From a virus (Duplodnaviria > Caudoviricetes), in the IMG/VR virus record IMGVR_UViG_3300022218_000007, positions 1-38,019 of that record: a stretch of 38,019 nucleotides of DNA. One strand, 5' to 3'. The notes beneath the pieces were generated by a model. The model did not search any database, was not told the DNA's origin, and saw only the letters and a program-made list of their open reading frames with translations. The stretch's first letter is position 1. Each line of letters starts with the position of its first letter. Shown piece by piece: positions 4,917 to 35,653 of this stretch. Made by a program: the position numbers and the translations under genes.

Positions 4917-5087
4917 ATGACATCATTTTTTGTAAAGCTAGGCATGGGTATACTAGGCGAATTAGCAATAAGAGTTATGAAACCTGAAATGATAGTAGAT
5001 TTGTTAGTTGCGATTGCGAAGAAAGCAGCCGCCAAGACTGAAACTGAAATAGATGATATGATAGTTAAAGCGTTGGAAAAATCATAA
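4917..5087 (+). CDS. Small lysis-region hypothetical protein (56 aa; not in ORF track)
   Basis: AAGGAGG RBS, ATG abutting the endolysin stop; MTSFFVKLGMG...TETEIDDMIVKALEKS. Confidence 0.65.
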   Translation: MTSFFVKLGMGILGELAIRVMKPEMIVDLLVAIAKKAAAKTETEIDDMIVKALEKS

Positions 5088-5144
5088 TTACTAATTCTGT
5101 ATAGATTAGTATTAAATTAGTATCTTCCTGATCCTCCTCCTTTA

Positions 5145-5176
5145 GCCCTCTGGCTTTCCACCAGACGGGCCTTTTT
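5145..5176 (+). terminator. Intrinsic terminator ending the late/lysis operon
   Basis: GCCCTCTGG-ctttcca-CCAGACGGGC followed by a T run. Confidence 0.65.
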
Positions 5177-5263
5177 ATACACTGTCCATGCCTCTTAACA
5201 ATGCACACTTTGGGCAGTTTTTTTATGCCTGTAAAATAAATATAAAATAATTTAAAATAAAGC

Positions 5264-5291
5264 TTGCTTTTTATATTCTAGCCTGTATAAT
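5264..5291 (+). promoter_or_regulatory. Sigma70-type early promoter with AT-rich UP region
   Basis: TTGCTT (5264) -16 bp- TATAAT (5286), A/T tracts upstream. Confidence 0.65.
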
Positions 5292-5309
5292 AGTATTTAA
5301 GAGTTGATA

Positions 5310-5371
5310 TTATAACAGATTAGCTCAATCGCAAGGCGCAGCCGCAGTCGTTTTGCAGCGTTGGGTTAGTG
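5310..5371 (-). repeat. attC-like site (solo cassette A)
   Basis: TAAC agatta GCTCAA...TTG C AGC gttgg GTTA; related to the site at 10370; ~60 bp like a 59-base element. Confidence 0.8.
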
Positions 5372-5398
5372 CGCCTTAACTTATAAAGGAGATATAAA

Positions 5399-5578
5399 AT
5401 GAAGCCTATTAAAACAACAGAATATTTTAGAGCTGAAAGACTGCATAAAGAAGAATGGTGTTGGAACACTTTTGGGACATGGGAAGAAGCATTAGAGAGA
5501 TATGAGCGGGACAAGGCGAAAGGCAAATACCCTGAATGTCGGATAGTAAAAGAATCAATAGAAATATTTAAACCGTAG
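5399..5578 (+). CDS. Cassette-borne hypothetical protein (59 aa; not in ORF track)
   Basis: AAAGGAG RBS; bracketed by GTTAGTGCGC (5365) and its exact reverse complement GCGCACTAAC (5578). Confidence 0.75.
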   Translation: MKPIKTTEYFRAERLHKEEWCWNTFGTWEEALERYERDKAKGKYPECRIVKESIEIFKP

Positions 5579-5580
5579 CG

Positions 5581-5603
5581 CACTAACCAAGGCTTATACG
5601 GAC
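5581..5603 (-). other. Unpaired core half-site (attI/secondary-site-like) closing solo cassette A
   Basis: TAAC caagg CTTATACGGAC with no downstream partner arm; resembles 16668 TAAC aaggc GATATCAGGAC. Confidence 0.45.
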
Positions 5604-5668
5604 GCTTCATCCTGCGTAACACAGGGGAAAAAGCGTATATAATATTAAAATACGGACAAGGAGGGTAT

Positions 5669-5860
5669 ATGAACATCGGGCTACAACTAAAGATAGCAAG
5701 GATAGAGAAGGAATGGACTCAAGAGGAATTAAGCAAGAAGTCAAAGGTATCGGCAGCGACCATAATAGATATTGAAAAAGGGAACGGCAATCCGAAACTT
5801 AAAACGGTTCAGAAGCTAATTGAATGTCTCGGCTATGATTTAAGGATAGTGAGAAGGTAG
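5669..5860 (+). CDS. XRE/Cro-family helix-turn-helix regulator
   Basis: LKIARIEKEWTQEELSKKSKVSAATIIDIEKGNGNPKLKTV, classic HTH_3 pattern. Confidence 0.9.
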   Translation: MNIGLQLKIARIEKEWTQEELSKKSKVSAATIIDIEKGNGNPKLKTVQKLIECLGYDLRIVRR

Positions 5861-5896
5861 AAGCAGTTACACTTTGGATGAATAAGGAGGGGTAAG

Positions 5897-6097
5897 ATGA
5901 CAAGCGATGAATTATTAAATATGGCAGAGCAACAAATATTGGGCTTTACTGCGGCTATGAGAGGTGATGGTATTGTAAATCTCATAGAGGCTATGGGCTT
6001 AACCTACCACGAATGGGAGGAAGTGAAAAAAGACACATCGCTATATATGCGAGAAGAGGATATTGAAACTCTTGATGAACATTTTTTAAGTCAATAA
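5897..6097 (+). CDS. Hypothetical protein
   Basis: AAGGAGG RBS, 66 aa acidic ORF. Confidence 0.7.
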   Translation: MTSDELLNMAEQQILGFTAAMRGDGIVNLIEAMGLTYHEWEEVKKDTSLYMREEDIETLDEHFLSQ

Positions 6098-6163
6098 GGA
6101 GGCTTAAATGACCAAGAAAACAAAGGCTCTTGAATACCTTAAACGAGTAGGAAAGGAGACTCC

Positions 6164-6322
6164 ATGAAAGACGTTCAATGCAAAAAGAATCGCAATGAAG
6201 TTATTCCGGTATCTCAGGCGGTGACAGATTTTGAACTCGATTCCGTATGCCACTCTTGCTTAGAATTTGACAAATGCCGGGAAGTATCGGAGCAAGCCGA
6301 GATAGATAAGCAATCTAATTAA
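6164..6322 (+). CDS. Hypothetical Cys-containing protein (52 aa; not in ORF track)
   Basis: AAAGGAG RBS, ATG 6164 to TAA 6322, contains CHSC. Confidence 0.55.
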   Translation: MKDVQCKKNRNEVIPVSQAVTDFELDSVCHSCLEFDKCREVSEQAEIDKQSN

Positions 6323-6333
6323 AGGAGGGGGCC

Positions 6334-6585
6334 ATGCCAAAGTATATAGCTTATAAGGATCCATCAGGTAACGAATATATAATGACTTTTCCAAGCGATA
6401 GAGATCAGCCCCAGCATAGAGATATAGCTAATGCAATGGGTTTTGAAAAAGAAGATATCTTGGGAGCTGGACAATATATTGATGTTGGGGGGAGAATAGT
6501 TTTTGGTGGCGATTCTTTGACCCTTGACATTAAGAGTCGGGGCGATATCGACAAGGCACTTTATATTGAGCAATCAAGAAGATAA
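6334..6585 (+). CDS. Hypothetical protein
   Basis: AAGGAGG RBS, 83 aa. Confidence 0.7.
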   Translation: MPKYIAYKDPSGNEYIMTFPSDRDQPQHRDIANAMGFEKEDILGAGQYIDVGGRIVFGGDSLTLDIKSRGDIDKALYIEQSRR

Positions 6586-6596
6586 GGAGGGTAATC

Positions 6597-6752
6597 ATGG
6601 AAAGTAAGAAAGATATGCCGATAACATTAAATCCAGTATTTGCAGCTACATTTAATCAGGTATTCGGGGAGCCTACACCAAAGAAGGACACCCGTGAAGA
6701 GGACAAGCAGGAGGCTAGGCAAAAGGAGAAGAAGAGGAGGGATGATGAATAG
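6597..6752 (+). CDS. Hypothetical protein (51 aa; not in ORF track)
   Basis: AAGGAGG RBS, ATG 6597 to TAG 6752. Confidence 0.55.
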   Translation: MESKKDMPITLNPVFAATFNQVFGEPTPKKDTREEDKQEARQKEKKRRDDE

Positions 6753-6900
6753 ATTAAATATTGTTACAACAATACTGTGGGGAGTTGCTGGACTTACATA
6801 TATTTCGGCAAGCGCAATCAGGCAAGAATTTATATATATGCCGATAGGGATAATTCACTTAGGGATAGCTATTCTTTATTCATCAAAGGTTGACAAATGA
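6742..6900 (+). CDS. Small two-TM membrane protein
   Basis: Start moved to ATG 6742/6745 after GAGGAGG; two hydrophobic segments. Confidence 0.6.
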   Translation: MMNRLNIVTTILWGVAGLTYISASAIRQEFIYMPIGIIHLGIAILYSSKVDK

Positions 6901-7109
6901 TGATTGAACCAAGACCATACTCCCATATACTAAGGGATACCTACTGCCCAGAAGATCAGACCATTGGCTGTGATGGTTGCCAGAATGATTCTGAATGTGC
7001 TATACGGGCGCATGACGAGGAAAGTTGCTGGGAGTTACCAAACTTTGGCCTTACCTGCGAGATATGCGTCAAGCAGGATAAAGACATACGAATGAGGGAG
7101 GGGGAATAA
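6897..7109 (+). CDS. Cys-rich hypothetical protein
   Basis: CDGC, CEIC motifs; ATGA overlap with the upstream stop. Confidence 0.6.
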   Translation: MMIEPRPYSHILRDTYCPEDQTIGCDGCQNDSECAIRAHDEESCWELPNFGLTCEICVKQDKDIRMREGE

Positions 7110-7607
7110 ATGCTGAAAATATATGAAATCAATGAAGAGATGCAAGCACTTGACGGCCTGTTAGATAGTTGGGCTGGTAATCATGAGGGAGATATAACGG
7201 ATTTCCCCCTTAATGACGAACTTGAACGCCTGGAAGGTGAAAGAGAAGAAAAGCTTCTAAATTTAGCCGTATGGGTCAAAGATCTTAAAGCCGAGGCCGA
7301 GGCATTCACAAATGAAATTAAGCGGCTACAGGGGCGGCAGAAGGCCTTAATCAACAAGTCTGAGCGCATTAAAGAGTTCATTGACTACAATCTGCAAAAG
7401 GGGGAAAAATTATCAGATGTTCGGGCTTCTTTGAGTTATCGGAAATCTACTCAAGTGGTTTTGGATGTAGCAGAAAGTTTATTGCCTCGTGAATTTTCTA
7501 AGATGGTGGTGACGGCAGATAAGGCAGCTATCAAAGCATATTTAAAAGATCATGATAAATGCGGTTTTGCTCATCTACATGAAAATCATAGCTTGCAAAT
7601 TAAATAA
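7110..7607 (+). CDS. Siphovirus Gp157-family protein
   Basis: MLKIYEI...coiled coil...EIKRLQGRQKAL...LSYRKS...DKAAIK...SLQIK pattern. Confidence 0.8.
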   Translation: MLKIYEINEEMQALDGLLDSWAGNHEGDITDFPLNDELERLEGEREEKLLNLAVWVKDLKAEAEAFTNEIKRLQGRQKALINKSERIKEFIDYNLQKGEKLSDVRASLSYRKSTQVVLDVAESLLPREFSKMVVTADKAAIKAYLKDHDKCGFAHLHENHSLQIK

Positions 7608-9911: not shown

Positions 9912-10014
9912 TTTGATGGGGAGTGGAAACACTAGGGAAATGGTTCCCTGCTTTATTTGGCAGATACGCCCCCATCAAACTTTTAATGAGCCTATTAGGT
10001 AGGTTGATTAAAGG
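9912..10014 (+). other. Structured non-coding segment (multi-branch stem plus hairpin) upstream of the cassette array
   Basis: TTTGATGGGG (9912) / CCCCATCAAA (9970) enclosing AGTG-gaaa-CACT and AGGGA-aatggt-TCCCT; a further hairpin at ~9982-10012. Confidence 0.4.
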
Positions 10015-10115
10015 GCTAAATATGCGGATAACCCGCAGCCAAAAAGAGTAGCGATATTGGACACATGGATTATGTTACCGCAGTTTATTTCGGGAACAAG
10101 ACCGAAGAATATTTA

Positions 10116-10220
10116 AATTAACCAGTTTATGGATTAAGGAGGAAACGATGAGCGAAGACAGAGAAGCATATAAAACGAAAAAGCCTATGAGCCAGTCCGC
10201 TGTTGAAGGACTGGTTATAG
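10116..10220 (-). repeat. attC-like site 1 (left arm degenerate)
   Basis: TAACCAGT ... GCCAG T CCGCTGTT G AAG gactg GTTA; contains the RBS and ATG 10148. Confidence 0.55.
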
Positions 10221-10351
10221 CCCTTGAAGCAACCAACAATGCTATGGTGGGGCTGATGACAAGCATAGCACAGCAAGGGACATTGCTGCCGGGGCGGTGG
10301 ATAGAAGAAGATTTAGCCAACATGGCTGACGCAAGAGAAAAGCTGGCCTGA
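10148..10351 (+). CDS. Cassette 1 hypothetical protein
   Basis: AAGGAGG RBS in the site; cassette ends GTTATAGCCC (10214) / GGGCTATAAC (10367). Confidence 0.65.
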   Translation: MSEDREAYKTKKPMSQSAVEGLVIALEATNNAMVGLMTSIAQQGTLLPGRWIEEDLANMADAREKLA

Positions 10352-10369
10352 CTAAAGAAAGACATGGGG

Positions 10370-10491
10370 CTATAACAGATTAGCTCAACTGCGGCCTGAC
10401 CCGCTTGAGCAAGGAGGATTTTAGATGAAAGACCAAGTAAAAACTGAGAATAATGCATCGTTGGCCGTCAATTTGCAGCGTTGGGTTAGGC
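10370..10491 (-). repeat. attC-like site 2
   Basis: TAAC agatta GCTCAACTG CGGCC ... GGCCG T CAATTTG C AGC gttgg GTTA. Confidence 0.8.
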
Positions 10492-10682
10492 GTTTTTTCC
10501 CTTACAAAGCGCATTTTGCCCTTGAATATGATAAAGGCTATGGCGTATTCAAAAGAACAGGGTGGACGGTTATAATAGGGTATTCGATAGTTTGTCAACT
10601 TGAAAAGTATCTTATTTGGGCGCTAGTTAAATCATTATGGCGATATCAAAGCTGGGAGTTAGAGAGCAAACTAAACGCATAA
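10425..10682 (+). CDS. Cassette 2 hypothetical protein
   Basis: Starts inside site 2; ends GTTAGGCGTTT / AAACGCATAAC (1 mismatch); stop codon is the TAA of TAAC. Confidence 0.65.
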   Translation: MKDQVKTENNASLAVNLQRWVRRFFPYKAHFALEYDKGYGVFKRTGWTVIIGYSIVCQLEKYLIWALVKSLWRYQSWELESKLNA

Positions 10683-10874
10683 CAATTTAATTCAATGGCA
10701 TTTGCCACTGAGGAGGACGGAAAGATGGAAGAAATATGGAAATGCGATAAATGTGGACATGAAGGCGGCAACAAGGGCGACTACTCCATTATTCACGAGA
10801 ACTGTGGGGGACAATTTTGCCTTACAACTCAAACAGAACCCGTGGCAGATGTCCTTTGCAATGTGGGGTTATCT
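10677..10874 (-). repeat. attC-like site 3 (long coding loop)
   Basis: TAAC aattta ATTCAATGG CATTTGCCAC ... GTGGCAGATG T CCTTTG C AAT gtggg GTTA. Confidence 0.75.
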
Positions 10875-11030
10875 GCCATTGCTGATTTAATAGAACGGGC
10901 GCAAGATGACACATGTAGGGCGCAAAGACGACTTAGCATGTTTAGAGAAGGGGCGGCAAGAGTTGAGGCGTTGAACGCTAAGCAATGTTTAATCTTGGCT
11001 ATTGATAAATTTAATGAGCTTGGCATATAA
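10725..11030 (+). CDS. Cassette 3 hypothetical protein (N-terminal CxxC encoded in the site loop)
   Basis: GAGGAGG RBS; ends GTTATCTGCCA / TGGCATATAAC. Confidence 0.65.
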   Translation: MEEIWKCDKCGHEGGNKGDYSIIHENCGGQFCLTTQTEPVADVLCNVGLSAIADLIERAQDDTCRAQRRLSMFREGAARVEALNAKQCLILAIDKFNELGI

Positions 11031-11148
11031 CGGGTGAGATAACTGGAAGGTTCCCCGCTCAATGCGGGGGTTCTTCCGGTTCATCGTATGGTTAGGGCGG
11101 CTGTCTCTATAGCCGACCCTCATTATGAAGTTATCTCACCCGTTAAGG
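11025..11148 (-). repeat. attC-like site 4 with nested inverted repeat
   Basis: TAAC gggtga GATAACTGGAAG...CTTCCGGTT C ATC gtatg GTTA (to 11094); 11028-11043 is also exactly inverted at 11130-11145. Confidence 0.75.
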
Positions 11149-11182
11149 CGTCGCGGAGCGATAAAATTAAAGGAGATTTAGT

Positions 11183-11368
11183 ATGAGTGATGAAAAGATT
11201 ATTTTGAAGCCCTGTCCGTTTTGCGGAAAGGAGCCAAGAACAGGACCATCGCCCCGGCATGGCGATTGGGCAATATATTGTCCGAATGTAGTTTGTGGAG
11301 CTATGATTGATCGTAGAAAATCGTATGTAGCGGCAGCAAGTGCGTGGAACCAGAGGACAGGGCGATAG
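11183..11368 (+). CDS. Cassette 4: Lar-family (restriction alleviation) Zn-finger protein
   Basis: LKPCPFCG ... CPNVVCG ... AASAWNQR; cassette ends GTTAAGGCGTCGCGG (11142) / CCGCGACGCCTTAAC (11383), 15/15. Confidence 0.75.
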   Translation: MSDEKIILKPCPFCGKEPRTGPSPRHGDWAIYCPNVVCGAMIDRRKSYVAAASAWNQRTGR

Positions 11369-11390
11369 GCACTTACACGCTACCGCGACG

Positions 11391-11458
11391 CCTTAACGAA
11401 ACGCTAAGCTGTGAGCGGAACGAATTGTAGCGAGTCCGTCTTCAGCAGTGTGTTATAT
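11391..11458 (-). repeat. attC-like site 5
   Basis: TAAC gaaac GCTAAG ... GCGAG T CCGTCTT C AGC agtgt GTTA. Confidence 0.75.
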
Positions 11459-11476
11459 TTTGCGTTCACTTTTAGC

Positions 11477-11505
11477 TTGACATTAGCAAACCGCTTTGTT
11501 AAGGT
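11477..11505 (+). promoter_or_regulatory. Cassette-internal promoter
   Basis: TTGACA -17 bp- TAAGGT with extended -10 TG. Confidence 0.55.
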
Positions 11506-11534
11506 TAAGTATAACCTAAATTAAGGAGGGTACT

Positions 11535-11984
11535 ATGAAATGCTATGACTGTGAAAAGGAATTGACGAAAGAGAAAGAAGAGTTTGGAATATGTGAGCCG
11601 TGCGAAGAAATTAGGGCTAACAAAATGCTTGATGAGATGGAAGAAGAAAACGCACAAAAAGAGATGGACAGAGTTAATAAAGAGGAATGGCAGAGAGAGT
11701 TTTCCAAAAGCGGTGGGTTAAAGAAGAGTGAGAAAAAAACTGAGGCCTGCCGAAAGAATGCAAGCAAGCCTAGGGCGAGGTGGGCAACGGCAATATATTA
11801 CGAGATAGAATATAAGGGGCCAAATGGCAAACGAGGGATTAAGGACGGCCTAATATTGCAAAAAGGGTGTATGAACACCTCCCTTGATTGTAACCGTGAG
11901 GAAGTTGTTGAATTGCTAGAAAAACATTCAGGACAGAAAATAGTTGATTTAAGAAAGTTTCAATCAATGATTAAAAAAATATAA
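11535..11984 (+). CDS. Cassette 5 hypothetical protein (Zn-finger plus basic GG..KSEKK..ACRKNASKPR motif, possibly DNA-binding)
   Basis: AAGGAGG RBS; ends GTTATATTTT (11452) / AAAATATAAC (11976). Confidence 0.7.
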   Translation: MKCYDCEKELTKEKEEFGICEPCEEIRANKMLDEMEEENAQKEMDRVNKEEWQREFSKSGGLKKSEKKTEACRKNASKPRARWATAIYYEIEYKGPNGKRGIKDGLILQKGCMNTSLDCNREEVVELLEKHSGQKIVDLRKFQSMIKKI

Positions 11985-12102
11985 CGTGAAGCTCAACCGC
12001 CGCATTTAATGGCAAATAGGAGGGATGAGGAAATGACAACAGAAAGCAAAGCAGATCAAGAAGCAACCAAGGTTAGCGGTCATTTGAAGCGTGGGGTTAT
12101 GC
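11979..12102 (-). repeat. attC-like site 6 (near-identical to the site at 22589)
   Basis: 25-bp and 60-bp exact matches to 22589-22613 and 22651-22710. Confidence 0.85.
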
Positions 12103-12287
12103 AAAATACGGGAGTTATGTGCATGATTACAGTTAATGACAATAACGCTATTGACGGAATAAGGCATGTAGATATGGGAAATTATTATAAGACTGAAACA
12201 GGTGAACAAGTGGTAGTTACCACAAAAGAATTAGCACAAAGATATCATAAGCTGATAGATGACACTATTTACGTGAGGAAAGCATAA
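12033..12287 (+). CDS. Cassette 6 hypothetical protein
   Basis: Starts inside site 6; ends GTTATGC / GCATAAC. Confidence 0.65.
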   Translation: MTTESKADQEATKVSGHLKRGVMQNTGVMCMITVNDNNAIDGIRHVDMGNYYKTETGEQVVVTTKELAQRYHKLIDDTIYVRKA

Positions 12288-12405
12288 CGTGCAAGCTAAA
12301 GGGCTGGCACACCAAGACTAAAGAGAGGAAACCATGACCAAAGATAGAGAGTATCCCAAAAAAGATGCGCCCCTTAGCCAGTCCGGTTTGAGCGATTTGT
12401 TATCT
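12282..12405 (-). repeat. attC-like site 7
   Basis: TAAC gtgcaa GCTAAAGGG CTGGC ... GCCAG T CCGGTTT G AGC gattt GTTA. Confidence 0.8.
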
Positions 12406-12606
12406 GCGACTCAGGCCGAAGAGGATAGTCATTTTGACGAACAGGTTGCAAAGTGTGGTGACTATGACAACCCTGAAAATGGATGCCCGAAATGTGGCAG
12501 ACAAAGGGTGATGTTGGATGCTGATAAAAAACACAGATGCGAAAAATGCGCTTGGTGCATTGAGGACAATGACTATGACGGAGACTTCTTTCGTCATTTG
12601 AGATGA
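12334..12606 (+). CDS. Cassette 7 zinc-ribbon protein
   Basis: CPKCG...CEKC; starts inside site 7; ends GTTATCTGC / GCAGATAAC. Confidence 0.7.
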   Translation: MTKDREYPKKDAPLSQSGLSDLLSATQAEEDSHFDEQVAKCGDYDNPENGCPKCGRQRVMLDADKKHRCEKCAWCIEDNDYDGDFFRHLR

Positions 12607-12608
12607 GC

Positions 12609-12738
12609 AGATAACGGTGAATTGAGGAGCAAGCGAATGGATGAAATATTACATACAAAACTAGGACCAGGACTTGATTTTGACCCGCTGGAAGAGAAGC
12701 AAGAAGTGAGCGCAGTCGCCTCGAATGTGGGGTTAGAC
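12609..12738 (-). repeat. attC-like site 8
   Basis: TAAC ggtga ATTGAGG ... CCTC G AAT gtggg GTTA. Confidence 0.7.
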
Positions 12739-12891
12739 AGCATCACCTTCTCTAGGGCGCAAGAAAAACAATTAAAATATTTAATAGAAAATGGCGGCAA
12801 ATATAGCGCAGGAACTGTATTTGTGCAAATGCCTAACGGCAAAACAATGTCAGTTGACCCTTTCGGGCGTGTCAAAACGATTGCTGGCTAA
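12637..12891 (+). CDS. Cassette 8 hypothetical protein
   Basis: GAGGAG RBS lies in the site arm; ends GTTAGACAGCA / TGCTGGCTAAC. Confidence 0.65.
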   Translation: MDEILHTKLGPGLDFDPLEEKQEVSAVASNVGLDSITFSRAQEKQLKYLIENGGKYSAGTVFVQMPNGKTMSVDPFGRVKTIAG

Positions 12892-12975
12892 CGAAAAGGG
12901 TAACACGCGCCTGTAAAGCGCACCCTATGAAATTAAAGACGCCGTTAGGCGTCAGATTTAATTTGATGGTTAGGC
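12886..12975 (-). repeat. attC-like site 9 (degenerate)
   Basis: TAAC...CGCCT / AGGCG...tgatg GTTA, with an internal GACGCC-gtta-GGCGTC hairpin. Confidence 0.55.
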
Positions 12976-13005
12976 AAAACAACTTTAATTGATAAGGGGG
13001 TTTAA

Positions 13006-13266
13006 GTGGAATTTATAGAAGGAGATGTTCTTTCGTACAAAGGCGGCTTGGCTATTACTAGCACCGAGGCTGGAATAGTAAAAATGTATGAAGGCCGATT
13101 AGTTAATTTTTACGGGCAAGCCTTTGGAGAAGATAATTTCGATGAAATAGATGATGTTATTAGTGCAGGATTTGAGCATATCGGGAATATAAACACAGAT
13201 AAGGAATTGCTTGAAAGAATGGAGGAAGCTACCCGAGTGCATAATGACTGGATGGACCAGAATTAA
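13006..13266 (+). CDS. Cassette 9: YopX-like C-terminal domain protein
   Basis: IEGDVL ... FEHIGNINTDKELLE resembles the YopX EGDI...EVIGNIYENPELL pattern; ends GTTAGGCAA / TTGCCTAAC. Confidence 0.55.
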   Translation: MEFIEGDVLSYKGGLAITSTEAGIVKMYEGRLVNFYGQAFGEDNFDEIDDVISAGFEHIGNINTDKELLERMEEATRVHNDWMDQN

Positions 13267-13268
13267 TT

Positions 13269-13401
13269 GCCTAACGTTTGACTTAACGGGCTTGCGGCCC
13301 AGGGAGGAAACATGATACCACCAAACGAAAGAGGGTTAAGCACCCTAAAAACTTCAGATGACACCAGTGTTAGCGAGTCCGAGTTGAAGGAATTGTTATA
13401 T
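13269..13401 (-). repeat. attC-like site 10
   Basis: TAAC gtttga CTTAACGGG CTTGC ... GCGAG T CCGAGTT G AAG gaatt GTTA. Confidence 0.8.
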
Positions 13402-13557
13402 GGCGGTGCATACAATTTTAAATATCAGACAGATCGACTCAAATATATTGGCAAGAAAGGCGGCTGGCACCAATTTGAAAAGGTTGGAAAGATGGGGGTG
13501 TGGTGCGAGTTGCTTGATAGTGACCTACACCTGATTGAAGAAACTCAAGACAGATAA
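13312..13557 (+). CDS. Cassette 10 hypothetical protein
   Basis: GGAGG RBS in the site; ends GTTATATGGC / GACAGATAAC (2 mismatches). Confidence 0.65.
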   Translation: MIPPNERGLSTLKTSDDTSVSESELKELLYGGAYNFKYQTDRLKYIGKKGGWHQFEKVGKMGVWCELLDSDLHLIEETQDR

Positions 13558-13614
13558 CGGTGAGGTCACCAGCCGGAGCCATCGGCGACGGTCCGGTGGA
13601 GCGCTGGGTTCTAT
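13552..13614 (-). repeat. attC-like site 11
   Basis: TAAC ggtga GGTCACC ... T CCGGTG G AGC gctgg GTTC. Confidence 0.75.
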
Positions 13615-13639
13615 TTCGCGCCAATAAAGGAGGATAGAT

Positions 13640-13843
13640 ATGATTAAAAAAGTAGAGATTACAGACTGTCATGACACAAATGTGCATTGGGAGGGAACAG
13701 GTGAGTTTACATTGTGTGGATTAGAGGCTTTAGACGGTGACCCTGGCATAGGATTGGGGGCAGCTAAAGAAACAAGAAAGAAAGTTGACTGCCAAACTTG
13801 TCTTGATATAGTCGATCATGTTCGACATATATTAAAGAAATAG
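13640..13843 (+). CDS. Cassette 11 Cys/His protein
   Basis: AAAGGAGG RBS; ends GTTCTATTTC / GAAATAGAAC, 10/10. Confidence 0.7.
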   Translation: MIKKVEITDCHDTNVHWEGTGEFTLCGLEALDGDPGIGLGAAKETRKKVDCQTCLDIVDHVRHILKK

Positions 13844-14053
13844 AACGAATTAATTCAGGGGCTTTTTGCCACTGAGAGGAGATGGGAAAATGGACAGGTT
13901 GAAAGTAGAAATAGAAATAGCACAATTGATATATGACAATATAAGCCCGGATGATCGGAAGCTAACATCAAGGACAATGGCTGCAAAAATAATGACCCTT
14001 ATAACCGAAAAAGAACCCGTGGCAACAAGTCCCGCTGCAATGACTGGTTCTGC
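13840..14053 (-). repeat. attC-like site 12 (long coding loop; related to site 3)
   Basis: GAAC gaatta ATTCAGGGG CTTTTTGCCAC ... GTGGCAACAAG T CCCGCTG C AAT gactg GTTC. Confidence 0.75.
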
Positions 14054-14213
14054 TGCGTTGCTTCGTGAAATGAAAGACGAACTTAGAGGGCATATAAGCG
14101 AACATGAGCTTGATGACGGTGACGAACTGGACACTGAAACCGAGGATTTGATTCTCGGCTGGATAGATAACTTTTTTGAAAACAAAATACATGACATGGA
14201 GCAAGAGCAGTAG
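13890..14213 (+). CDS. Cassette 12 hypothetical protein
   Basis: GAGGAG RBS in the site; ends GTTCTGCTGC / GCAGTAGAAC. Confidence 0.65.
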   Translation: MDRLKVEIEIAQLIYDNISPDDRKLTSRTMAAKIMTLITEKEPVATSPAAMTGSAALLREMKDELRGHISEHELDDGDELDTETEDLILGWIDNFFENKIHDMEQEQ

Positions 14214-14287
14214 AACAGACCAGCTCAGCAGCAGACATAAGCGAAGCAAAGCGAGTGTTGGCTGTCAGCTGGAGCGCCTTGTTAGGC
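14210..14287 (-). repeat. attC-like site 13
   Basis: GAAC agacca GCTCAGCAG CAG ... CTG T CAGCTG G AGC gcctt GTTA. Confidence 0.8.
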
Positions 14288-14293
14288 GAAACC

Positions 14294-14527
14294 ATGGAGA
14301 TTAAAGTGATGGAATTTACAGACAAAGAATATAAATGGCTCAAAGAAGCGGATAGACTATTTAAAAAGAAACCTAAAGGCTTGATGTTATATTCCTGCGA
14401 CAGCGACATTATAGTGTGCAAAAAGGGAGCGAACTGTGGTGATGTTTCCCATAAGATATTTAACAGTGATATCAATTGTTGTAATGTGCTTGTTGATGTG
14501 CATGACGACTATGGTTATGGAGCCTAA
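14294..14527 (+). CDS. Cassette 13 hypothetical protein (start uncertain)
   Basis: Ends GTTAGGC / GCCTAAC; stop codon is the TAA of the core. Confidence 0.6.
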   Translation: MEIKVMEFTDKEYKWLKEADRLFKKKPKGLMLYSCDSDIIVCKKGANCGDVSHKIFNSDINCCNVLVDVHDDYGYGA

Positions 14528-14610
14528 CAAATGTGATAACCAGCGGCAGGAAACGAACACTTAAAAAGCAGAATGGCTGTTAGCCGTCTGCGTTGATTAG
14601 GGGGTTAGGA
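14522..14610 (-). repeat. attC-like site 14
   Basis: TAAC aaatgt GATAACCAG CGGC ... GCCG T CTGCGTT G ATT agggg GTTA. Confidence 0.8.
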
Positions 14611-14616
14611 GGATCT

Positions 14617-14943
14617 ATGAGCGATATATTTACGCACGGCCAACAAATAGAATGCCCTGAATGCCCAGGGACTGGTAAAAGGCAAAGAAAGCCCGTATTA
14701 GAAATGTTGTCAAAAAACTATAGTGGTTGCTCGGTTGACTTTGGCGGTTGCCCAGAATGTGGAAAGGCATGGCAAGTTAGCTATAAAATTGACAACATGA
14801 CCCACGAAGCCGACTGGGATATTCCTTCAAGAAAAGAGAGAGAGCAAGCAGAGGAAAAGGAAGCGGCTAGAAAGCTAGAACAAAAGGAACTGGAAGAATA
14901 CAAGGAATTTGAGAGGCTTAGAGTAAAATTTGGAGCCTCCTAA
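14617..14943 (+). CDS. Cassette 14 zinc-ribbon/coiled-coil protein
   Basis: CPEC x2; the cassette end GTTAGGAGG doubles as the RBS and is matched by CCTCCTAAC (14936). Confidence 0.7.
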   Translation: MSDIFTHGQQIECPECPGTGKRQRKPVLEMLSKNYSGCSVDFGGCPECGKAWQVSYKIDNMTHEADWDIPSRKEREQAEEKEAARKLEQKELEEYKEFERLRVKFGAS

Positions 14944-15022
14944 CTATGAATTAACCAGTGGCGCAACGAAGCCCACTGGAAAAGAAAACGTAACCGCCAT
15001 CTGGTTGAATGGCGTGTTATGC
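14938..15022 (-). repeat. attC-like site 15
   Basis: Minus strand reads TAAC acgcc ATTCAACC AGATGGCG...; plus strand has unpaired T and G on the right arm. Confidence 0.85.
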
Positions 15023-15035
15023 GCGAGGTGATTAA

Positions 15036-15257
15036 ATGAGAGTTGAAAAAACTGGGTATGGAGATAGAGAAGTAGATCACTTGAAAGACGCTGGTCTTGA
15101 AAATAAATTTGCTTCTTTTGAGCAAGTAGAGGACTCGCAGCCAGAGATAGGAATGTATATCGGCTGGAACGAGCCTAAAAAGTTTTGGAAACCATTTTTA
15201 TATATCTCACTCTGGCGGGTTAATTTGAGAATAGGCTGGCTTTGGGAGAGCGCATAA
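15036..15257 (+). CDS. Cassette 15 hypothetical protein
   Basis: GAGGTG RBS; ends GTTATGCGC / GCGCATAAC. Confidence 0.65.
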   Translation: MRVEKTGYGDREVDHLKDAGLENKFASFEQVEDSQPEIGMYIGWNEPKKFWKPFLYISLWRVNLRIGWLWESA

Positions 15258-15338
15258 CAAGTTTAATAAGCTGGCTGTGAACACAAACACTAAAAACGAA
15301 AACACCCCTAACAGCTCCGCTTGATTTAGGGGTTATCT
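15252..15338 (-). repeat. attC-like site 16
   Basis: TAAC aagttt AATAAGC...CTGT ... ACAG..CCGCTT G ATT taggg GTTA. Confidence 0.75.
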
Positions 15339-15350
15339 TGCGAGGATATT

Positions 15351-15551
15351 ATGAAAAGAATAAATTTTAACTGGTTATTTATATGCGGACATATCGGCCC
15401 TGATCTGATTTGGTTTAGAATGGGAACATGGGGCGCAGGAATTGTGGCAAAAAACACCCCTGCTCTTTATAGCGAAAGATGCAAATTTATGATATATCAT
15501 AAAATACCTTTCTCGAAGTGGAGATGTGGATTTTTAAAGGCAGCAAGATAA
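15351..15551 (+). CDS. Cassette 16 hypothetical protein
   Basis: Ends GTTATCTTGC / GCAAGATAAC, 10/10. Confidence 0.65.
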   Translation: MKRINFNWLFICGHIGPDLIWFRMGTWGAGIVAKNTPALYSERCKFMIYHKIPFSKWRCGFLKAAR

Positions 15552-15675
15552 CGATTTGAGCTAAGCGGCTTGTGGCTTAAATTGTTAGAGCCGCTTCAAA
15601 GTAAATAAATATTAATATACCAACGCTGAAAAAGAGGCCACTATTAACAAGTCCGTCTTCAGCGATTGGTTAGCA
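15546..15675 (-). repeat. attC-like site 17
   Basis: TAAC gatttga GCTAAGCGG CTTGT ... ACAAG T CCGTCTT C AGC gattg GTTA. Confidence 0.8.
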
Positions 15676-15713
15676 CCAATATGCTTCTTATGGACTACCC
15701 GTCTGCAAACTAC

Positions 15714-15836
15714 CTATTTGCCGCATTTGCGACCGATAGGCTTGGGCTTAGACCGTTTATGTGCCGGAACACTAACAGTTTTTGGCCCAGGTTTTTTGCC
15801 GACCCGTACAGGACGACACTTGACCTTTGTTGCCAT
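15714..15836 (-). CDS. Cassette 17: 40-aa highly basic peptide (not in ORF track)
   Basis: AAGGAGGT RBS; MATKVKCRPVRVGKKPGPKTVSVPAHKRSKPKPIGRKCGK. Confidence 0.55.
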   Translation of the reverse strand: MATKVKCRPVRVGKKPGPKTVSVPAHKRSKPKPIGRKCGK

Positions 15837-15947
15837 TTGAACCACCTCCTTTTTTGGCCAGTTGCCAACCCATGAATCAACTGACCATATAGAGTGATAT
15901 CAAAAGTGACGGGTAGCCCATAAGGGGCATATTGAAAGGAGTATACT

Positions 15948-16169
15948 ATGAAAAAGATAGAGCAAGAAATAAGACAGCAGGTGGCACTTCAATTAATTAA
16001 AGCTGATGTACCACCCGCAGATATCCTAAATAATGCAGGTCCAATTTCAGAGTGGATTATTTCGGGCTACCACCAGCAGCAACATTCCAACATTCAGAAT
16101 AAAGCGCAAGCCAATATTGTCTGTCCTTTGGTTTTGTGTCCGTCTCTGAGTTCGCAATCCTCTTCATGA
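15948..16169 (+). CDS. Cassette 17 hypothetical protein (3' half overlaps an antisense ORF)
   Basis: AAAGGAG RBS; 73 aa. Confidence 0.45.
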   Translation: MKKIEQEIRQQVALQLIKADVPPADILNNAGPISEWIISGYHQQQHSNIQNKAQANIVCPLVLCPSLSSQSSS

Positions 16170-16224
16170 GATCGTATGCAACGCGGGACTTGGAATCGTT
16201 CTCTAATACAACTTTTTCTGCCAT
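16057..16224 (-). CDS. Cassette 17: 55-aa hypothetical protein (not in ORF track)
   Basis: AAAGGAGG RBS; MAEKVVLENDSKSRVAYDLMKRIANSETDTKPKDRQYWLALYSECWNVAAGGSPK; cassette ends GTTAGCAC (15669) / GTGCTAAC (16258). Confidence 0.6.
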   Translation of the reverse strand: MAEKVVLENDSKSRVAYDLMKRIANSETDTKPKDRQYWLALYSECWNVAAGGSPK

Positions 16225-16258
16225 GATATATCCTCCTTTGGATTTATTAGGGTTTGAG

Positions 16259-16391
16259 TGCTAACAAATTAAATTCAAGGGCTTGCGGGTCAAGGAGGGA
16301 ACACATGGAAATGACAGCAGATTATTACCCAAAAGGGAAACCTGAAAACGAGAACACCATTAGCAAGTCCTTTTGCAATGATGGGTTAGGC
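16259..16391 (-). repeat. attC-like site 18
   Basis: TAAC aaattaa ATTCAAGGG CTTGC ... GCAAG T CCTTTTG C AAT gatgg GTTA. Confidence 0.8.
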
Positions 16392-16670
16392 CCCCGTATC
16401 TTACATTTAACTCTCAAAAAAAAGTGGTTTGATATGATTGCCTTTGGAGTCAAGAAGGAAGAGTATCGAGAGATGAAGCCGTATTGGCATAAGAGATTGC
16501 TTAATAAGGGCTATGATGTGATTCGTTTCAGAAACGGATACGCAAAAGATTCTCCAACCCTGACAGTAGAATATAAAGGACTTGAATCTAGCCTGGGAAT
16601 CATTGAATGGGGCGCCCCAGAAAAAACGCCAGTTTATATATTGAAGCTTGGAAGGATTCTAGGGGCATAA
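16305..16670 (+). CDS. Cassette 18: ASCH/PUA-like domain protein
   Basis: LHLTLKKKWFDMIAFGVKKEEYRE...FRNGY...YILKLG; starts inside site 18; ends GTTAGGCCCC / GGGGCATAAC. Confidence 0.75.
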   Translation: MEMTADYYPKGKPENENTISKSFCNDGLGPRILHLTLKKKWFDMIAFGVKKEEYREMKPYWHKRLLNKGYDVIRFRNGYAKDSPTLTVEYKGLESSLGIIEWGAPEKTPVYILKLGRILGA

Positions 16671-16687
16671 CAAGGCGATATCAGGAC
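16665..16687 (-). other. Unpaired core half-site (attI/secondary-site-like) at the array end
   Basis: TAAC aaggc GATATCAGGAC; no partner arm downstream. Confidence 0.45.
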
Positions 16688-16702
16688 TTCTCAAAGTAAG
16701 CT

Positions 16703-17068
16703 ATGACTGGATATAATAAAAAATTCAACTACTTACAAAGACTATCTAAGCGACAACTTGAGGCGGCTGATCGTGCTAGGTTAGAACGTGAAATATATTA
16801 TCCTGAGTTGTTTGTCGAGCCTGATGTATGGTATGAAAATACATTAAAGGATAGATTTGGCAAAGAGCACACTATGCGCTTACTTAATCGTGAGGGTAAA
16901 AGATGCGATAGCTATATAGTTGAGTATATGGGGCATATAGTGTATGTAAATAGGTTTGGTAATTTGGTATTAAATGAAACTAGGAAGCCATTAGTGTTGG
17001 GTTTATCTGAGGCTATGAGATTTATGGCAAAGCAGTTTCCGAGGATATCAAGGAGGCATGATGAGTAG
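16703..17068 (+). CDS. Hypothetical protein
   Basis: 121-aa ORF overlapping the start of the next gene. Confidence 0.6.
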   Translation: MTGYNKKFNYLQRLSKRQLEAADRARLEREIYYPELFVEPDVWYENTLKDRFGKEHTMRLLNREGKRCDSYIVEYMGHIVYVNRFGNLVLNETRKPLVLGLSEAMRFMAKQFPRISRRHDE

Positions 17069-18809: not shown

Positions 18810-19442
18810 ATGAAATAAAAAATTAATTTACACGCTCATACAATATTTTCAGATGGGTGCAACACGCCTTATGTAATGGCGCAGAAGGCAAAAGAGCTTG
18901 GATTTTCAGCCTTAGTGATAACGGATCATTATTATATTAATAGTGATGATTCCGAGTTTTCTTTAAGCGAAGATAGATTCCAATTGTTACGGAGAGCATG
19001 TAGAGAAGCTAAAGAAGTATTGCCTATAATAATTGGCATCGAAGCATCATTTATGGGGCAGGAAGTTTTAATTTTTGGTGGCGAGGCTATCAAGAGAATA
19101 TTCAAAAGCAAGAGTTTGACCCCTGATGAAATGATGTTACTGCGGAAGGAAACGCATTGTGCAATAATATTATGCCATCCAGGGGGCGATATTGACCCAT
19201 TAGAACCGTATATAGACGGGTTTGAGCATTACAATTCTGGTCAAGATTGGTTTAAGGGAAGAGACTTTGGTAAACTAAAAGACAAGCAAAGATGGTGCAA
19301 TAGTGATGCTCACGGTGTTAGGTGTTTAGATAGGAATTATAATATAGTAACCCATAAAATACAAAACGAGAGCGACCTCATTAAATATATCAAGACCGGA
19401 AAGCAGCCTGAATTTTATGTGAAAAATTTTGAGGATAAATGA
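18810..19442 (+). pseudogene. PHP-domain phosphoesterase with an in-frame TAA at codon 3
   Basis: GGAGGT-ATG AAA TAA AAA ATT AAT TTA CAC GCT CAT...: NLHAHTIFSDG, ITDH, GIE, CHP, NSDAH motifs all in one frame. Confidence 0.7.
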
Positions 19443-20149
19443 AAAGCGGTAACTGGATCGGCTTAGATAAAAATATAGTTAAGTTATTGCCTCATGGCAG
19501 AGCCTACACTATCATAGAAGCCTTGATAAGTTTCACCATAGATATTGATAATAAAAGAGATTGGACTATCAATGGGTATGCTAAACAATGGACTTGGAGC
19601 CGTAATAAAGTGCGTAAATTTACCTCTGAGTTAAGGACAGGTAAGGGACACTTAGCGGACAGGAAGGGGACAGGAAGGGGACACCTAATAACCTTAAAAC
19701 TCAACAACTTACACGAAGTAGAGGACAGGAAGAGGACAGGTAATGGACAGGAAGAGGACAGGAAGAGGGACACTACTATATATCCTAATCCTAAACCTAA
19801 TCCTAAACCTAAAAAGAAAGAGATAAAAGAATACTCTCTCTATGGTGAATTTAACAACGTAAGATTAACAGATGAGCAATACCAAAAGTTATCCGACAAA
19901 TACAACGGCAAGCGTGATGGCATGATAGAAACAATGAGCCAACATATCGATTCTAAAAAGAAAGACCCATATACCGGAAAAACTCATTACTCAGCCATTT
20001 TAAAGAATGACCATTGGCTAGACAAAAGCAACGGTAACAACAAAGGTTTTAAGACACGCTCAGAGCGAAACGCTGAAGCCAAGGAAGCCTTTTTAAACTC
20101 AGCAAACAATGAGAAAGATATAACACCAACACTGGAGGCAATAGAATGA
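19439..20149 (+). CDS. Phage replication initiator (lambda O / replisome-organizer-like)
   Basis: N-terminal GNWIGLDK..., HTH-like WTWSRNKVRKF, repeat-encoded linker, followed by a loader-like gene. Confidence 0.7.
   Translation: MKSGNWIGLDKNIVKLLPHGRAYTIIEALISFTIDIDNKRDWTINGYAKQWTWSRNKVRKFTSELRTGKGHLADRKGTGRGHLITLKLNNLHEVEDRKRTGNGQEEDRKRDTTIYPNPKPNPKPKKKEIKEYSLYGEFNNVRLTDEQYQKLSDKYNGKRDGMIETMSQHIDSKKKDPYTGKTHYSAILKNDHWLDKSNGNNKGFKTRSERNAEAKEAFLNSANNEKDITPTLEAIE
19635..19773 (+). repeat. Iteron-like 11-bp-phased GGACA(G/C) repeats, putative replication origin
   Basis: GGACA at 19635, 19646, 19657, 19668, 19679, 19723, 19734, 19745, 19756, 19768. Confidence 0.7.
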
Positions 20150-22250: not shown

Positions 22251-22594
22251 TGGAAGATAAAAAACAAAGAACGCCACCACAGAATAGATCTTTGCACAAG
22301 TATTGCACTAATCTTGCAAATGCTTTAAATGACGCTGGCTTAGATATGAAGAAAACTCTCAAGCCTGAAATAGATATACCTTGGACTTGCGAGAGCGTAA
22401 AGACTCACCTATATAAACCTATATTAAAATCTCTCACCGGTAAAGAATCGACTATAGACATGGACACGAAAGATCCTTCAATAGTGTATGAGATATTAAA
22501 CAGATTTATGGGGGAAAAACATGGTATAATAGTAGACTGGCCTAGCAGAGAATCACAAAGCAATGAAGCTATGGGGATTAAGAAAAGCATATAA
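22250..22594 (+). CDS. NinB/DUF1367-like recombination accessory protein
   Basis: KQRTPPQNRSLHKY...ST..M...GIIVDWP; TAATG coupling; stop codon is the TAA of the attC core. Confidence 0.55.
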   Translation: MEDKKQRTPPQNRSLHKYCTNLANALNDAGLDMKKTLKPEIDIPWTCESVKTHLYKPILKSLTGKESTIDMDTKDPSIVYEILNRFMGEKHGIIVDWPSRESQSNEAMGIKKSI

Positions 22595-22712
22595 CGTGAA
22601 GCTCAACCGCCGCGTTGAGAGAGGAGAACTAAGAATATGAAAGAACCTATAGAAAGCAAAGCAGATCAAGAAGCAACCAAGGTTAGCGGTCATTTGAAGC
22701 GTGGGGTTATAT
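22589..22712 (-). repeat. attC-like site (solo cassette B)
   Basis: Same length as site 6 and identical to it over 25 + 60 bp. Confidence 0.85.
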
Positions 22713-22933
22713 TTGACCAAGAGGCATTGAAAATCAAGCTCAGACGGGCCACGATAGCTAAGACAAAGTGGGATAACAGGGGGTGGTATATCTGTGATAG
22801 TTCTGGAATATATCATCTCTATGATGATGGGATAGTTCGACATGGCGCAACAAGCCCAAGAAGTGAAGGAGTGTCGGCTTTTTGGAGGACAAGGAAAGAG
22901 GCAAGAATGTTTTATGACGGGTGGAAAATATAA
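22637..22933 (+). CDS. Solo cassette B hypothetical protein
   Basis: Starts inside the site; shares ESKADQEATKVSGHLKRGV with cassette 6, then diverges; ends GTTATATTT (22706) / AAATATAAC (22926). Confidence 0.7.
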   Translation: MKEPIESKADQEATKVSGHLKRGVIFDQEALKIKLRRATIAKTKWDNRGWYICDSSGIYHLYDDGIVRHGATSPRSEGVSAFWRTRKEARMFYDGWKI

Positions 22934-35525: not shown

Positions 35526-35653
35526 AGATGAGAGAATTAGTTAGTTTTTTTATGTTATTTAGTTTAGCAGTAAGCGCAATGTTGTATAAGGATATTAAAA
35601 CCGAGAGAAATATTGAGCAAGCGCAAAAGCAGGAGGTCGTAAAAGTTAATTAA
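35522..35653 (+). CDS. Small membrane peptide (43 aa; not in ORF track)
   Basis: ATGA overlap upstream, TAATG coupling downstream; hydrophobic N-terminus. Confidence 0.45.
   Translation: MKMRELVSFFMLFSLAVSAMLYKDIKTERNIEQAQKQEVVKVN

Follow-up and report, generated by a model that had tools for sequence, protein, structure and literature searches.

Predicted gene starts within inverted attC-type hairpins of a tailed-phage cassette array

Two elements of the system analysed here have precedents: phage-borne clusters of attC sites lacking an integron integrase (CALINs), described in phage TJE1 (PMC9892861), and translation signals within integron att sites, reported in another form (PMC8876359). 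The term CALIN was taken from Cury 2016 (PMC4889954). According to Nivina 2016 (PMC5027507), attC sites have extrahelical bases near L'', crossover occurs at R', and the bottom strands are more stable and purine-rich. The stretch studied, IMG/VR record IMGVR_UViG_3300022218_000007, is a tailed-phage genome of 38,019 nt ("the window", which is the whole record) with a main array of attC-type hairpins at 10107-16783. Like the TJE1 CALIN, this is an attC-bounded array of small genes in a phage without an integrase (PMC9892861). Its cassettes are likely inverted, with the hairpin before its own gene; in long hairpins, the loop would supply a Shine-Dalgarno (SD) sequence and an ATG that start a front of 20-50 residues fused in frame to the remainder of the protein (the body, or cargo).

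About 20 integron attC-type hairpins were located in the window. They have the form TAAC ... GTTA, with GAAC or GTTC in two; the main array holds 19, the last of them decayed, and others lie at 5313 and 22592. The AAC and GTT elements (inverse core RYYYAAC and core GTTRRRY) were intact at 19 of the 20 sites, the one at 10107 being decayed. When the inner boxes were paired, an extra base fell on the right arm, before GTT, in 20 of 20 sites, and placement on the left was never better. The spacer is fixed at 5 nt on the right and ranges from 5 to 7 nt on the left, and the L box pairs at 5-6 of its 6 positions in 19 of 20 sites (3 of 6 at 12889). The plus strand, which is that of the mRNA, folded more stably as DNA in 16 of the 18 sites folded, and that strand is 57-63% purine, with 61-63% in the hairpin interiors. 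An extra base on the GTT-side arm implies a canonical attC on the minus strand; the genes are therefore antisense to the sites, and a hairpin belongs to the gene downstream of it. Judged by these features, the window sites are ordinary attC sites whose top strand is the minus strand, with the GTT side as R'', the TAAC side as R' and a predicted crossover between TAA and C (TAA/C). The typical cassette layout, in which a gene on the top strand ends at R'' and a non-coding attC lies 3' of it, is not that of the window array, in which a single cassette (15669-16265) holds sense genes. The 19 sites at 10107-16783 constitute a CALIN as defined (at least two attC sites on the same strand, spaced by under 4 kb), no integrase is nearby within this record, and the array has the sequence characters of one that works like an integron cassette array. 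No Rfam family matched the window hairpins.

For comparison, 269 viral and 128 genome loci were scanned, after removal of duplicates, with a polarity-aware attC detector of our own; most had no detected cassette pair. With a spacer of 5-7 nt, 12 of the 20 curated window cassettes were recovered (only 3 with the spacer fixed at 6 nt), the reversed-sequence control gave 2 false cassettes, and GC-rich loci give some wrong polarity calls. Among the 12 window cassettes, 11 were antisense, none sense and 1 ambiguous. Because the sampled loci had been picked with motifs and genes of the window, the proportions carry a bias and do not represent phages in general: antisense calls made up 112 of 144 viral cassettes (12 sense, 20 ambiguous), and sense calls made up 70 of 102 cassettes from bacterial genomes (9 antisense, 23 ambiguous). 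By locus, antisense cassettes predominated at 39 of the 46 viral loci where any were detected, and sense cassettes at 23 of 29 genome loci. The sole cassette detected in TJE1, the published CALIN, was called sense. In the comparison of loop starts below, a phage-like locus on a bacterial-genome contig (L206) was counted as viral; at 5001-7600 it carries an antisense loop-start array and is probably a prophage, and no IntI above the cut-off was found in the genome that carries it.

Cassette borders were examined next to this polarity. Beyond the cores, the two ends of one cassette are complementary at 6.0 of 7 nt, versus 2.3 of 7 when the comparison spans a hairpin. At the NinB-like locus, where the window has its site at 22592, a related locus (L392) keeps the window flank through TAAC-G, after which another hairpin and another body follow, also with a start in the loop. 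To the left, the L392 flank is complementary to the one past its last hairpin, as expected if cassettes are inserted at the TAA/C of a resident site. No cassette is present at this locus in L391. The cassettes that follow hairpin 15549 and its 91% identical homologue in L368 share their ends, and each has a minus-strand gene. A complete 45-kb phage, G006 (loci L403 and L331; contig 11715-12656 and upstream, minus strand), encodes an IntI (TIGR02249, 397 bits, cut-off 265) that adjoins the attI-like end of an antisense loop-start array. This IntI lies just right of the attI-like end, the geometry that minus-strand polarity predicts; cassettes are mostly transcribed opposite to intI (Cury 2016, PMC4889954). 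The initial annotation had held that each site precedes its own ORF (open reading frame), and the bulge polarity (20/20), the L392 docking flank and the G006 IntI geometry all bear this out. An all-against-all test of cargos yielded only 11 homologous pairs from 169 cassettes: in 8 it was the upstream hairpin that showed the greater similarity, in 2 it was the downstream one, and one pair was tied. The G006 array comprises about 10 mostly antisense cassettes, and that genome encodes a second tyrosine recombinase as well. Its first cassette is normally oriented, and a hairpin loop start there opens an 80-residue ORF that overlaps, on the opposite strand, a 114-residue sense gene.

Ten ATGs, at 10148, 10425, 10725, 12033, 12334, 12637, 13312, 13890, 16305 and 22637, each lie inside a hairpin, with a frame open through the right arm and the core. 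This confirms the earlier count of SD and ATG pairs within hairpins, as well as the use of all three frames: the G of GTT is in frame 0 for 10148, 10425, 12033 (G at 12096) and 22637, and in frame 2 for 10725, 12334, 12637, 13312 and 16305; 13890, with its GTTC core, is the sole case of frame 1. The SD sequences of these starts give duplexes of -7.8 to -12.1 kcal/mol with a generic anti-SD sequence. In nine of the ten, the ATG stands 40-52 nt past the left TAAC, just beyond the left arm; at 12637 this distance is 25 nt, with the SD overlapping the left arm. None of the ten proteins scored above the Pfam cut-off.

Long sites (more than 105 nt) had an SD of -7 kcal/mol or better plus a start in 10 of 11 cases and short sites in 0 of 9. 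When the cargo frame was fixed from the cargo alone and the long sites 10107 (whose ORF stops 24 nt early) and 15549 were set aside, starts in the cargo frame were present at 9 of 9 long sites, versus 0.17 expected from interiors shuffled with composition preserved. The long hairpin at 15549 has no SD and precedes a minus-strand cassette. Each of the nine short-site cassettes has an SD and a start of its own past the core. It had been proposed that loop starts make each cassette translationally self-contained; this holds, and it holds equally for the nine short-site cassettes, so it is not special to loop starts. It had also been proposed that the core of cassette 14 acts as an SD, and indeed the core plus the next bases, GTTAGGAGG at 14604 on the plus strand, is the SD of ATG 14617 (-10.2 kcal/mol). 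In other phages, the best loop start was in the cargo frame at 29 of 33 long sites, and an SD of -7 or better was present in 20 of 43, versus 1.38 expected; a comparable start was found in 5 of 83 long bacterial attC sites. Of the antisense sites detected, 36 of 58 long ones and 3 of 65 short ones had a loop start.

It is very improbable that the SD and ATG words arise as by-products of loops rich in purines while the real starts lie at or after the core. The interiors are indeed purine-rich, and the fronts are without protein-level constraint (see below). ORF 12033, the weakest case, offers in-frame alternatives at ATG 12099, at the core (SD -4.0), and at ATG 12123 (SD -6.9), which count against a loop start in that gene. 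The shuffles, however, predicted 0.17 starts where nine were observed, the starts choose the cargo frame, and nine of the ten ORFs have no in-frame start near or after the core with an SD better than -3.3. The loop starts are thus likely to be translated, as far as can be judged from their sequence.

The cargo homologues bear on the same question. Position 2 of the phrog_625 profile falls at residue 31 of the 16305 protein, just past the core; position 3 of phrog_30689 falls at residue 28 of the 13312 protein, which is the core itself; and a phrog_24897 match to the 12334 protein extrapolates to a start near the core. Among the best 120 phrog_625 homologues (window protein included), 87 start no more than 5 residues from the domain, 23 are extended without a nearby Met, 7 are extended with a Met, and 3 were missed by the pattern; some of the 23 have short extensions unrelated to hairpins. 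Seven close homologues keep the window's core junction with differing fronts and no nearby Met. For the 13312 body, the start lies within 5 codons of the core position at 4 of 5 loci, and 5 of 8 protein homologues have the same junction with unrelated fronts. In the window, the phrog_625 and phrog_30689 bodies lack their family's own Met, a further point against the by-product account. The expectation that homologues would begin only after the GTT core was thereby borne out for two cargos, whose cassette-free homologues start at the core. By eye, two further phrog_625 cassettes have lost the native ATG and start in the loop (L008, frame 2; L018, frame 1). Near phrog_625 in L005, L024 and L029, the core reads GTT-ATG or a decayed form of it, and an SD-like word stands in the inner box or spacer; this layout is possibly the ancestral state, before starts moved into the loop. 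Distant phrog_625 relatives are annotated as ASCH domains, the source of the ASCH label for 16305.

The fronts of 45 loop-start cassettes measure 14-34 residues, or 47-52 in the five longest hairpins, and are rich in E, K, T, D and S. Loop codons have a codon-position bias (p = 7e-17); in frame they contain 0 stops in 626 codons (zero by construction), versus 34 and 59 of 582 in the other frames. The rates of nonsynonymous (pN) and synonymous (pS) change in fronts were 0.24 and 0.22, a comparison on the small base of 4 pairs and 68 codons, some of them in the stem; the cargo control gave 0.16 versus 0.86. Among the pairs of similar hairpins listed, at least 34 share a frame and at least 20 differ; hairpin 12285 and its L368 homologue differ in frame through a 1-nt indel in the arm. 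Since pN is close to pS and homologous hairpins serve different frames, most fronts are predicted to be neutral hydrophilic linkers. The initial annotation's proposal that the site supplies the SD, start and N-terminus is upheld by the cassette-free homologues that begin at the core, but the "leader peptide" it attached to this is not, given the pN and pS values. A functional leader peptide was rejected for the 20-28-residue fronts, which vary freely among homologues; what would mark a regulatory leader or attenuator, a separate short ORF or a conserved peptide, was not found, the fronts being fused in frame. Loop-start and own-start cassettes have similar total lengths (medians 332 and 326 nt), and loop-start bodies are shorter (195 versus 244 nt, p = 1e-6); the loop therefore takes over coding space.

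Only some loops of about 50 residues (about 200 nt) carry a conserved, exchangeable mini-domain. Two other bodies carry the Cys/His mini-domain of the 10725 loop, at 79% and 47% identity; four other fronts are known for the 10725 body, and three other loop-encoded fronts for the 13890 body. Hairpins 11982 and 22592 are 85% identical, have unrelated bodies and diverge just after GTTAT, and the same break is seen in L105 versus L396 and in 12285 versus L368. This comparison shows that fronts and bodies have been newly paired at the GTT core in relatives. The duplicated hairpin raised the idea that the plus-strand GTT is the main crossover, with hairpin and front staying in place as in-frame landing pads for start-less bodies. 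The mixed combinations of fronts and bodies, and the near-identical hairpins with unrelated bodies, speak for it. The bulge polarity indicates the opposite end in 20 of 20 sites; the common docking flank runs no farther than TAAC-G, IntI and the attI-like end of G006 are placed as minus-strand attC sites would require, and close homologues keep arm, frame and body together. Furthermore, with three frames in use, routine exchange at GTT would break about two thirds of the fusions. The docking flank and the bulge polarity placed GTT below TAA/C as the main crossover, and we regard the landing-pad account as unlikely.

A different objection grants that the loop starts are real and holds that the attC sites are fossils: they would have been reshuffled by homologous or illegitimate recombination (an Erf-type annealing protein is encoded at 8988), and starts would have arisen later in dead spacers. 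Erf-like and Gam-like genes are present, and no integrase is encoded in the window; the end sites are decayed, and an L005 homologue of the 13312 cassette has kept its front and lost its left arm. Decay would, however, have eroded both the box pairing (5-6 of 6 with a bulge in 19 of 20 sites) and the near-perfect complementarity of cassette ends. Different cassettes occupy one exact base in relatives, and in G006 loop-start cassettes stand beside an intact IntI. Fossil sites are accordingly judged a rather unlikely explanation.

The initial annotation had further suggested that the hairpin gates translation: it would hide SD and ATG unless melted by ribosomes that terminate at the TAA of TAAC, and successive cassettes would thereby be coupled. 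The mRNA is the better-folding strand, the upstream ORF stops at this TAA in four of ten cases and within 8 nt in three more, and attC hairpins are reported to hinder ribosomes, an effect relieved by short ORFs inside attC (Jacquier 2009, as given in PMC8876359). In predictions based on equilibrium folds only, the cost of opening the -16 to +12 footprint had a median of 5.3 kcal/mol for the ten starts versus 6.8 for 31 ordinary window genes, and melting to 15 nt past the stop shifted it by -1.8 to +1.7 with no trend. The SD lies just beyond the left arm in nine of ten cases, six of the ten upstream ORFs miss the TAA, and three have no upstream stop within 20 nt. In class 1 arrays, attC deletion seldom altered downstream expression (PMC11511950). 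With the opening cost not raised and melting without a consistent effect in the predicted folds, gating is improbable, and the suggestion was dropped.

Polarity, cassette borders, the in-frame SD and ATG, the loss of native starts and the re-pairing at the core are all read from comparison of sequences, and they lead to the following scheme for inverted cassettes with loop starts. The phage transcript would correspond to the purine-rich bottom strand of attC, in whose unpaired loop SD-like words would be easily gained. The host, or another phage infecting the same cell, would presumably provide in trans an integron integrase that cuts at TAA/C. A cut at this position would let hairpin, start and body travel as one unit, so that cassette order leaves the frame intact. 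More rarely, hairpin and body are re-paired at the GTT core, presumably through top-strand (R'') recombination or through formation of new cassettes; the survivors would be in-frame products or those corrected by a 1-nt indel. Fronts would replace the body's own start, some loops of about 200 nt would bring a small exchangeable domain, and the hairpin is predicted not to gate initiation. Top-strand recombination is 1,000-10,000-fold less frequent (Nivina 2016, PMC5027507), and a lower-frequency top-strand reaction was reported for five phage sites (Qi 2023, PMC9892861). A possible benefit of loop starts is fewer untranslated gaps, since in class 1 arrays such gaps reduced the expression of what lies downstream (PMC11511950). 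Against this benefit, the short sites of the window tolerate gaps of 83-167 nt. More tentatively, and with rather more doubt than confidence, the two reactions could make up an inverted offshoot of the integron system in phages, used for combinatorial protein building, in which bottom-strand recombination moves whole self-starting cassettes and top-strand recombination at GTT swaps loop-encoded N-terminal modules, including small Cys/His domains, between bodies. Were that so, cassettes would have a visible way of arising in the same event, namely the fusion of hairpin and gene at GTT-ATG and TAA-C.

Besides the biased sample and the small codon base already given, several observations weigh against the inverted-cassette scheme. 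No tyrosine recombinase, no PF00589 match and no IntI was found in the window genome (G000), and a tyrosine recombinase was likewise not found in its relatives G001-G003 and G005. When hairpin 15549 was used as a probe for the host, none of five Desulfobacterota-labelled genomes matched. No attI-like site was recognised at the ends of the window array, whose right ends resemble decayed attC by eye. Three cassette-borne phrog_625 genes (L005, L010 and L029) keep the native ATG as GTT-ATG by eye, so a loop start is not always needed. Re-pairing at GTT means that a hairpin is not permanently tied to its body, and in the cargo-pair test just 2 of the 11 pairs exceeded the 99th background percentile, too few to settle linkage. 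Finally, the record is classed as linear with a CheckV estimate of 46% and may be incomplete. The window is probably near complete, because a relative with terminal repeats (G002), 36.7 kb long, receives the same CheckV estimate.

The array was catalogued from left to right, with hairpins assigned to the minus strand and, unless noted otherwise, ORFs to the plus strand. It opens with the decayed hairpin 10107..10217 (left core GAAT for TAAC), which carries the SD and ATG 10148, on the plus strand, of a 67-residue ORF (10148..10351; 22-codon front, frame 0). Hairpin 10373..10488, with SD and ATG 10425, starts an 85-residue ORF (10425..10682, frame 0) whose stop is the TAA of the next site, a 198-nt hairpin (10680..10871) with the loop-encoded Cys/His mini-domain that is joined to cargo in a 101-residue ORF (10725..11030, frame 2). 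At 11028..11145, a short hairpin (11028-11094) precedes a remnant without a gene and, at 11142, another right core. This 50-nt remnant (11091-11146) lies between two right cores and pairs, at its end, with the left arm at 11028; it resembles what the deletion of a cassette would leave. A Lar-like ORF (11183..11368) has its own SD past the core, as does a 149-residue ORF (11535..11984) behind the short hairpin 11394..11455, which has no internal start. Hairpin 11982..12099, with SD and ATG 12033 and 85% identity to 22592, starts the 84-residue ORF 12033..12287 (frame 0), the weakest loop-start case; hairpin 12285..12402, with SD and ATG 12334, starts a 90-residue ORF (12334..12606, frame 2) with the phrog_24897 match, and its L368 homologue is in another frame. 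The SD in the left arm of hairpin 12612..12735 serves ATG 12637 of an 84-residue ORF (12637..12891, frame 2). A 90-nt hairpin (12889..12972) with poor box pairing and no internal start has a similar site in G006 and precedes an 86-residue ORF (13006..13266) with a weak YopX/phrog_98 match and its own SD past the core. Hairpin 13272..13398 holds the SD and ATG of an 81-residue ORF (13312..13557, frame 2; phrog_30689 from residue 28).

Farther right, a short hairpin with a GTTC core (13555..13611) is followed by a 67-residue ORF with its own SD past the core (13640..13843), and a 214-nt hairpin (GAAC/GTTC; 13843..14050) carries the SD and ATG of a 107-residue ORF (13890..14213, frame 1) whose homologues have other loop fronts. 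Four short hairpins come next. The first, at 14213..14284, precedes a 72-residue ORF with its own SD past the core (14309..14527); the second, at 14525..14612, is the one whose core region provides the SD of the 108-residue ORF 14617..14943; the others, at 14941..15019 and 15255..15335, precede ORFs of 73 (15036..15257) and 66 residues (15351..15551), each with its own SD past the core. The 130-nt hairpin without an SD (15549..15672, 91% identical to the L368 site) leads into a cassette at 15669..16265 with minus-strand ORFs at 16057-16224 and ending at 15710, and a plus-strand ORF at 15948-16169. This cassette (15669-16265) is the sole one in the window with sense genes, the two small minus-strand ORFs with SDs, which the plus-strand ORF overlaps. 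At its ends it closely resembles sense-gene cassettes of L368 and G006, and these may form a shared, perhaps host-derived, class. Hairpin 16262..16388, with SD and ATG 16305, starts a 121-residue ORF (16305..16670, frame 2; phrog_625 from residue 31), and a decayed hairpin (16668..16783) closes the array on the right.

Outside the main array, a hairpin at the stop codon of the NinB-like gene (22592..22709), with a docking flank as in L392, carries the SD and ATG of a 98-residue ORF (22637..22933, frame 0) followed by a hairpin remnant at 22931. A third array (5313..5587) has one cassette: a short hairpin (5313-5368), an ORF with its own SD (5399-5578) and a decayed hairpin from 5584. This cassette (5313-5650) stands behind a promoter-like stretch, and, by eye, the flank left of its first hairpin is approximately complementary to the decayed far end of its last one, as in L392, which suggests a resident docking hairpin. 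The genome encodes terminase, portal, major head, tape measure, Erf-like, Gam-like, NinB-like and resolvase proteins. Searches with Erf and with terminase returned two and four relatives, respectively, in which the main array was unmatched except for short hairpin matches. A promoter scan of the window gave 71 sites versus 51 expected, and this result was not used. A look-up for positions 10000-17000 listed neither a sequencing run nor an RNA holder. After the Erf operon, a long inverted repeat with an inner stem (9914-9982), conserved in a relative (L082, 10570-10675), had no Rfam match at the gathering score and is possibly a structured RNA or terminator. A marginal Rfam abiF match (37.8 bits, gathering 37) lies between genes at 5182-5218, before the early genes. 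Tandem 11-nt repeats at 19618-19779, inside ORF 19439-20149, are iteron-like and possibly a replication origin. A 759-residue tail-region protein (35653-37932) contains 138-nt repeats and a Vgb_lyase-family match (85.5 bits, cut-off 50).

In their anatomy, the window sites match the bottom-strand oligonucleotide of the assayed TJE1 attC1 (PMC9892861). They share with canonical cassettes the R and L boxes, 5-nt spacer, extrahelical base, variable loop, complementary ends and a purine-rich, stable bottom strand (PMC5027507, PMC5371416). The TJE1 genes, however, are sense to attC, judged by the cassette detected there, whereas those of the window are antisense and start inside the site; in the main text of PMC9892861, the words ribosome, start codon and translation were not found. 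Unlike canonical cassettes, those of the window carry attC 5' of a bottom-strand gene, and the loop and one arm code for protein; loop-start and own-start cassettes are also shorter (medians 326-332 nt) than the sampled bacterial ones (566 nt). Unlike a complete integron, the window genome has no IntI, and no attI was recognised. Short ORFs in attC and ORF-11 in attI1 (Jacquier 2009 and others, via PMC8876359 and PMC11511950) are likewise cases of a recombination site carrying translation signals. As these sources describe them, they lie on the top strand, encode separate peptides and act on the following cassette by reinitiation, whereas the window start is on the bottom strand and forms the gene's own N-terminus. 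Insertion by attC x attG recombination, described together with SALINs (bioRxiv 10.1101/2022.09.11.507474), lets cassettes enter at GWT sites away from integrons, and the reverse of the TAAC stop fits the attG GWT consensus; that account, as available, concerns bacterial genomes and does not describe antisense genes or coding loops. No description of antisense phage cassettes, or of genes starting within their own attC, was found in the titles, abstract openings and passages covered by a literature search with few subscription papers in its reach.

The arrangement, if correct, would be a likely route by which phages exchange small early genes through integron machinery. It would explain variable N-terminal extensions of small phage proteins, a source of confusion in annotation, and the exact re-pairing of hairpin and body at the core would offer a test case for how cassettes gain attC sites. 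In a normal array, a coding attC would meet a frame problem, which the mirror orientation avoids. Whereas attC has been treated as non-coding DNA behind the gene, here the same DNA is predicted to fold for recombination, bind ribosomes and encode protein.

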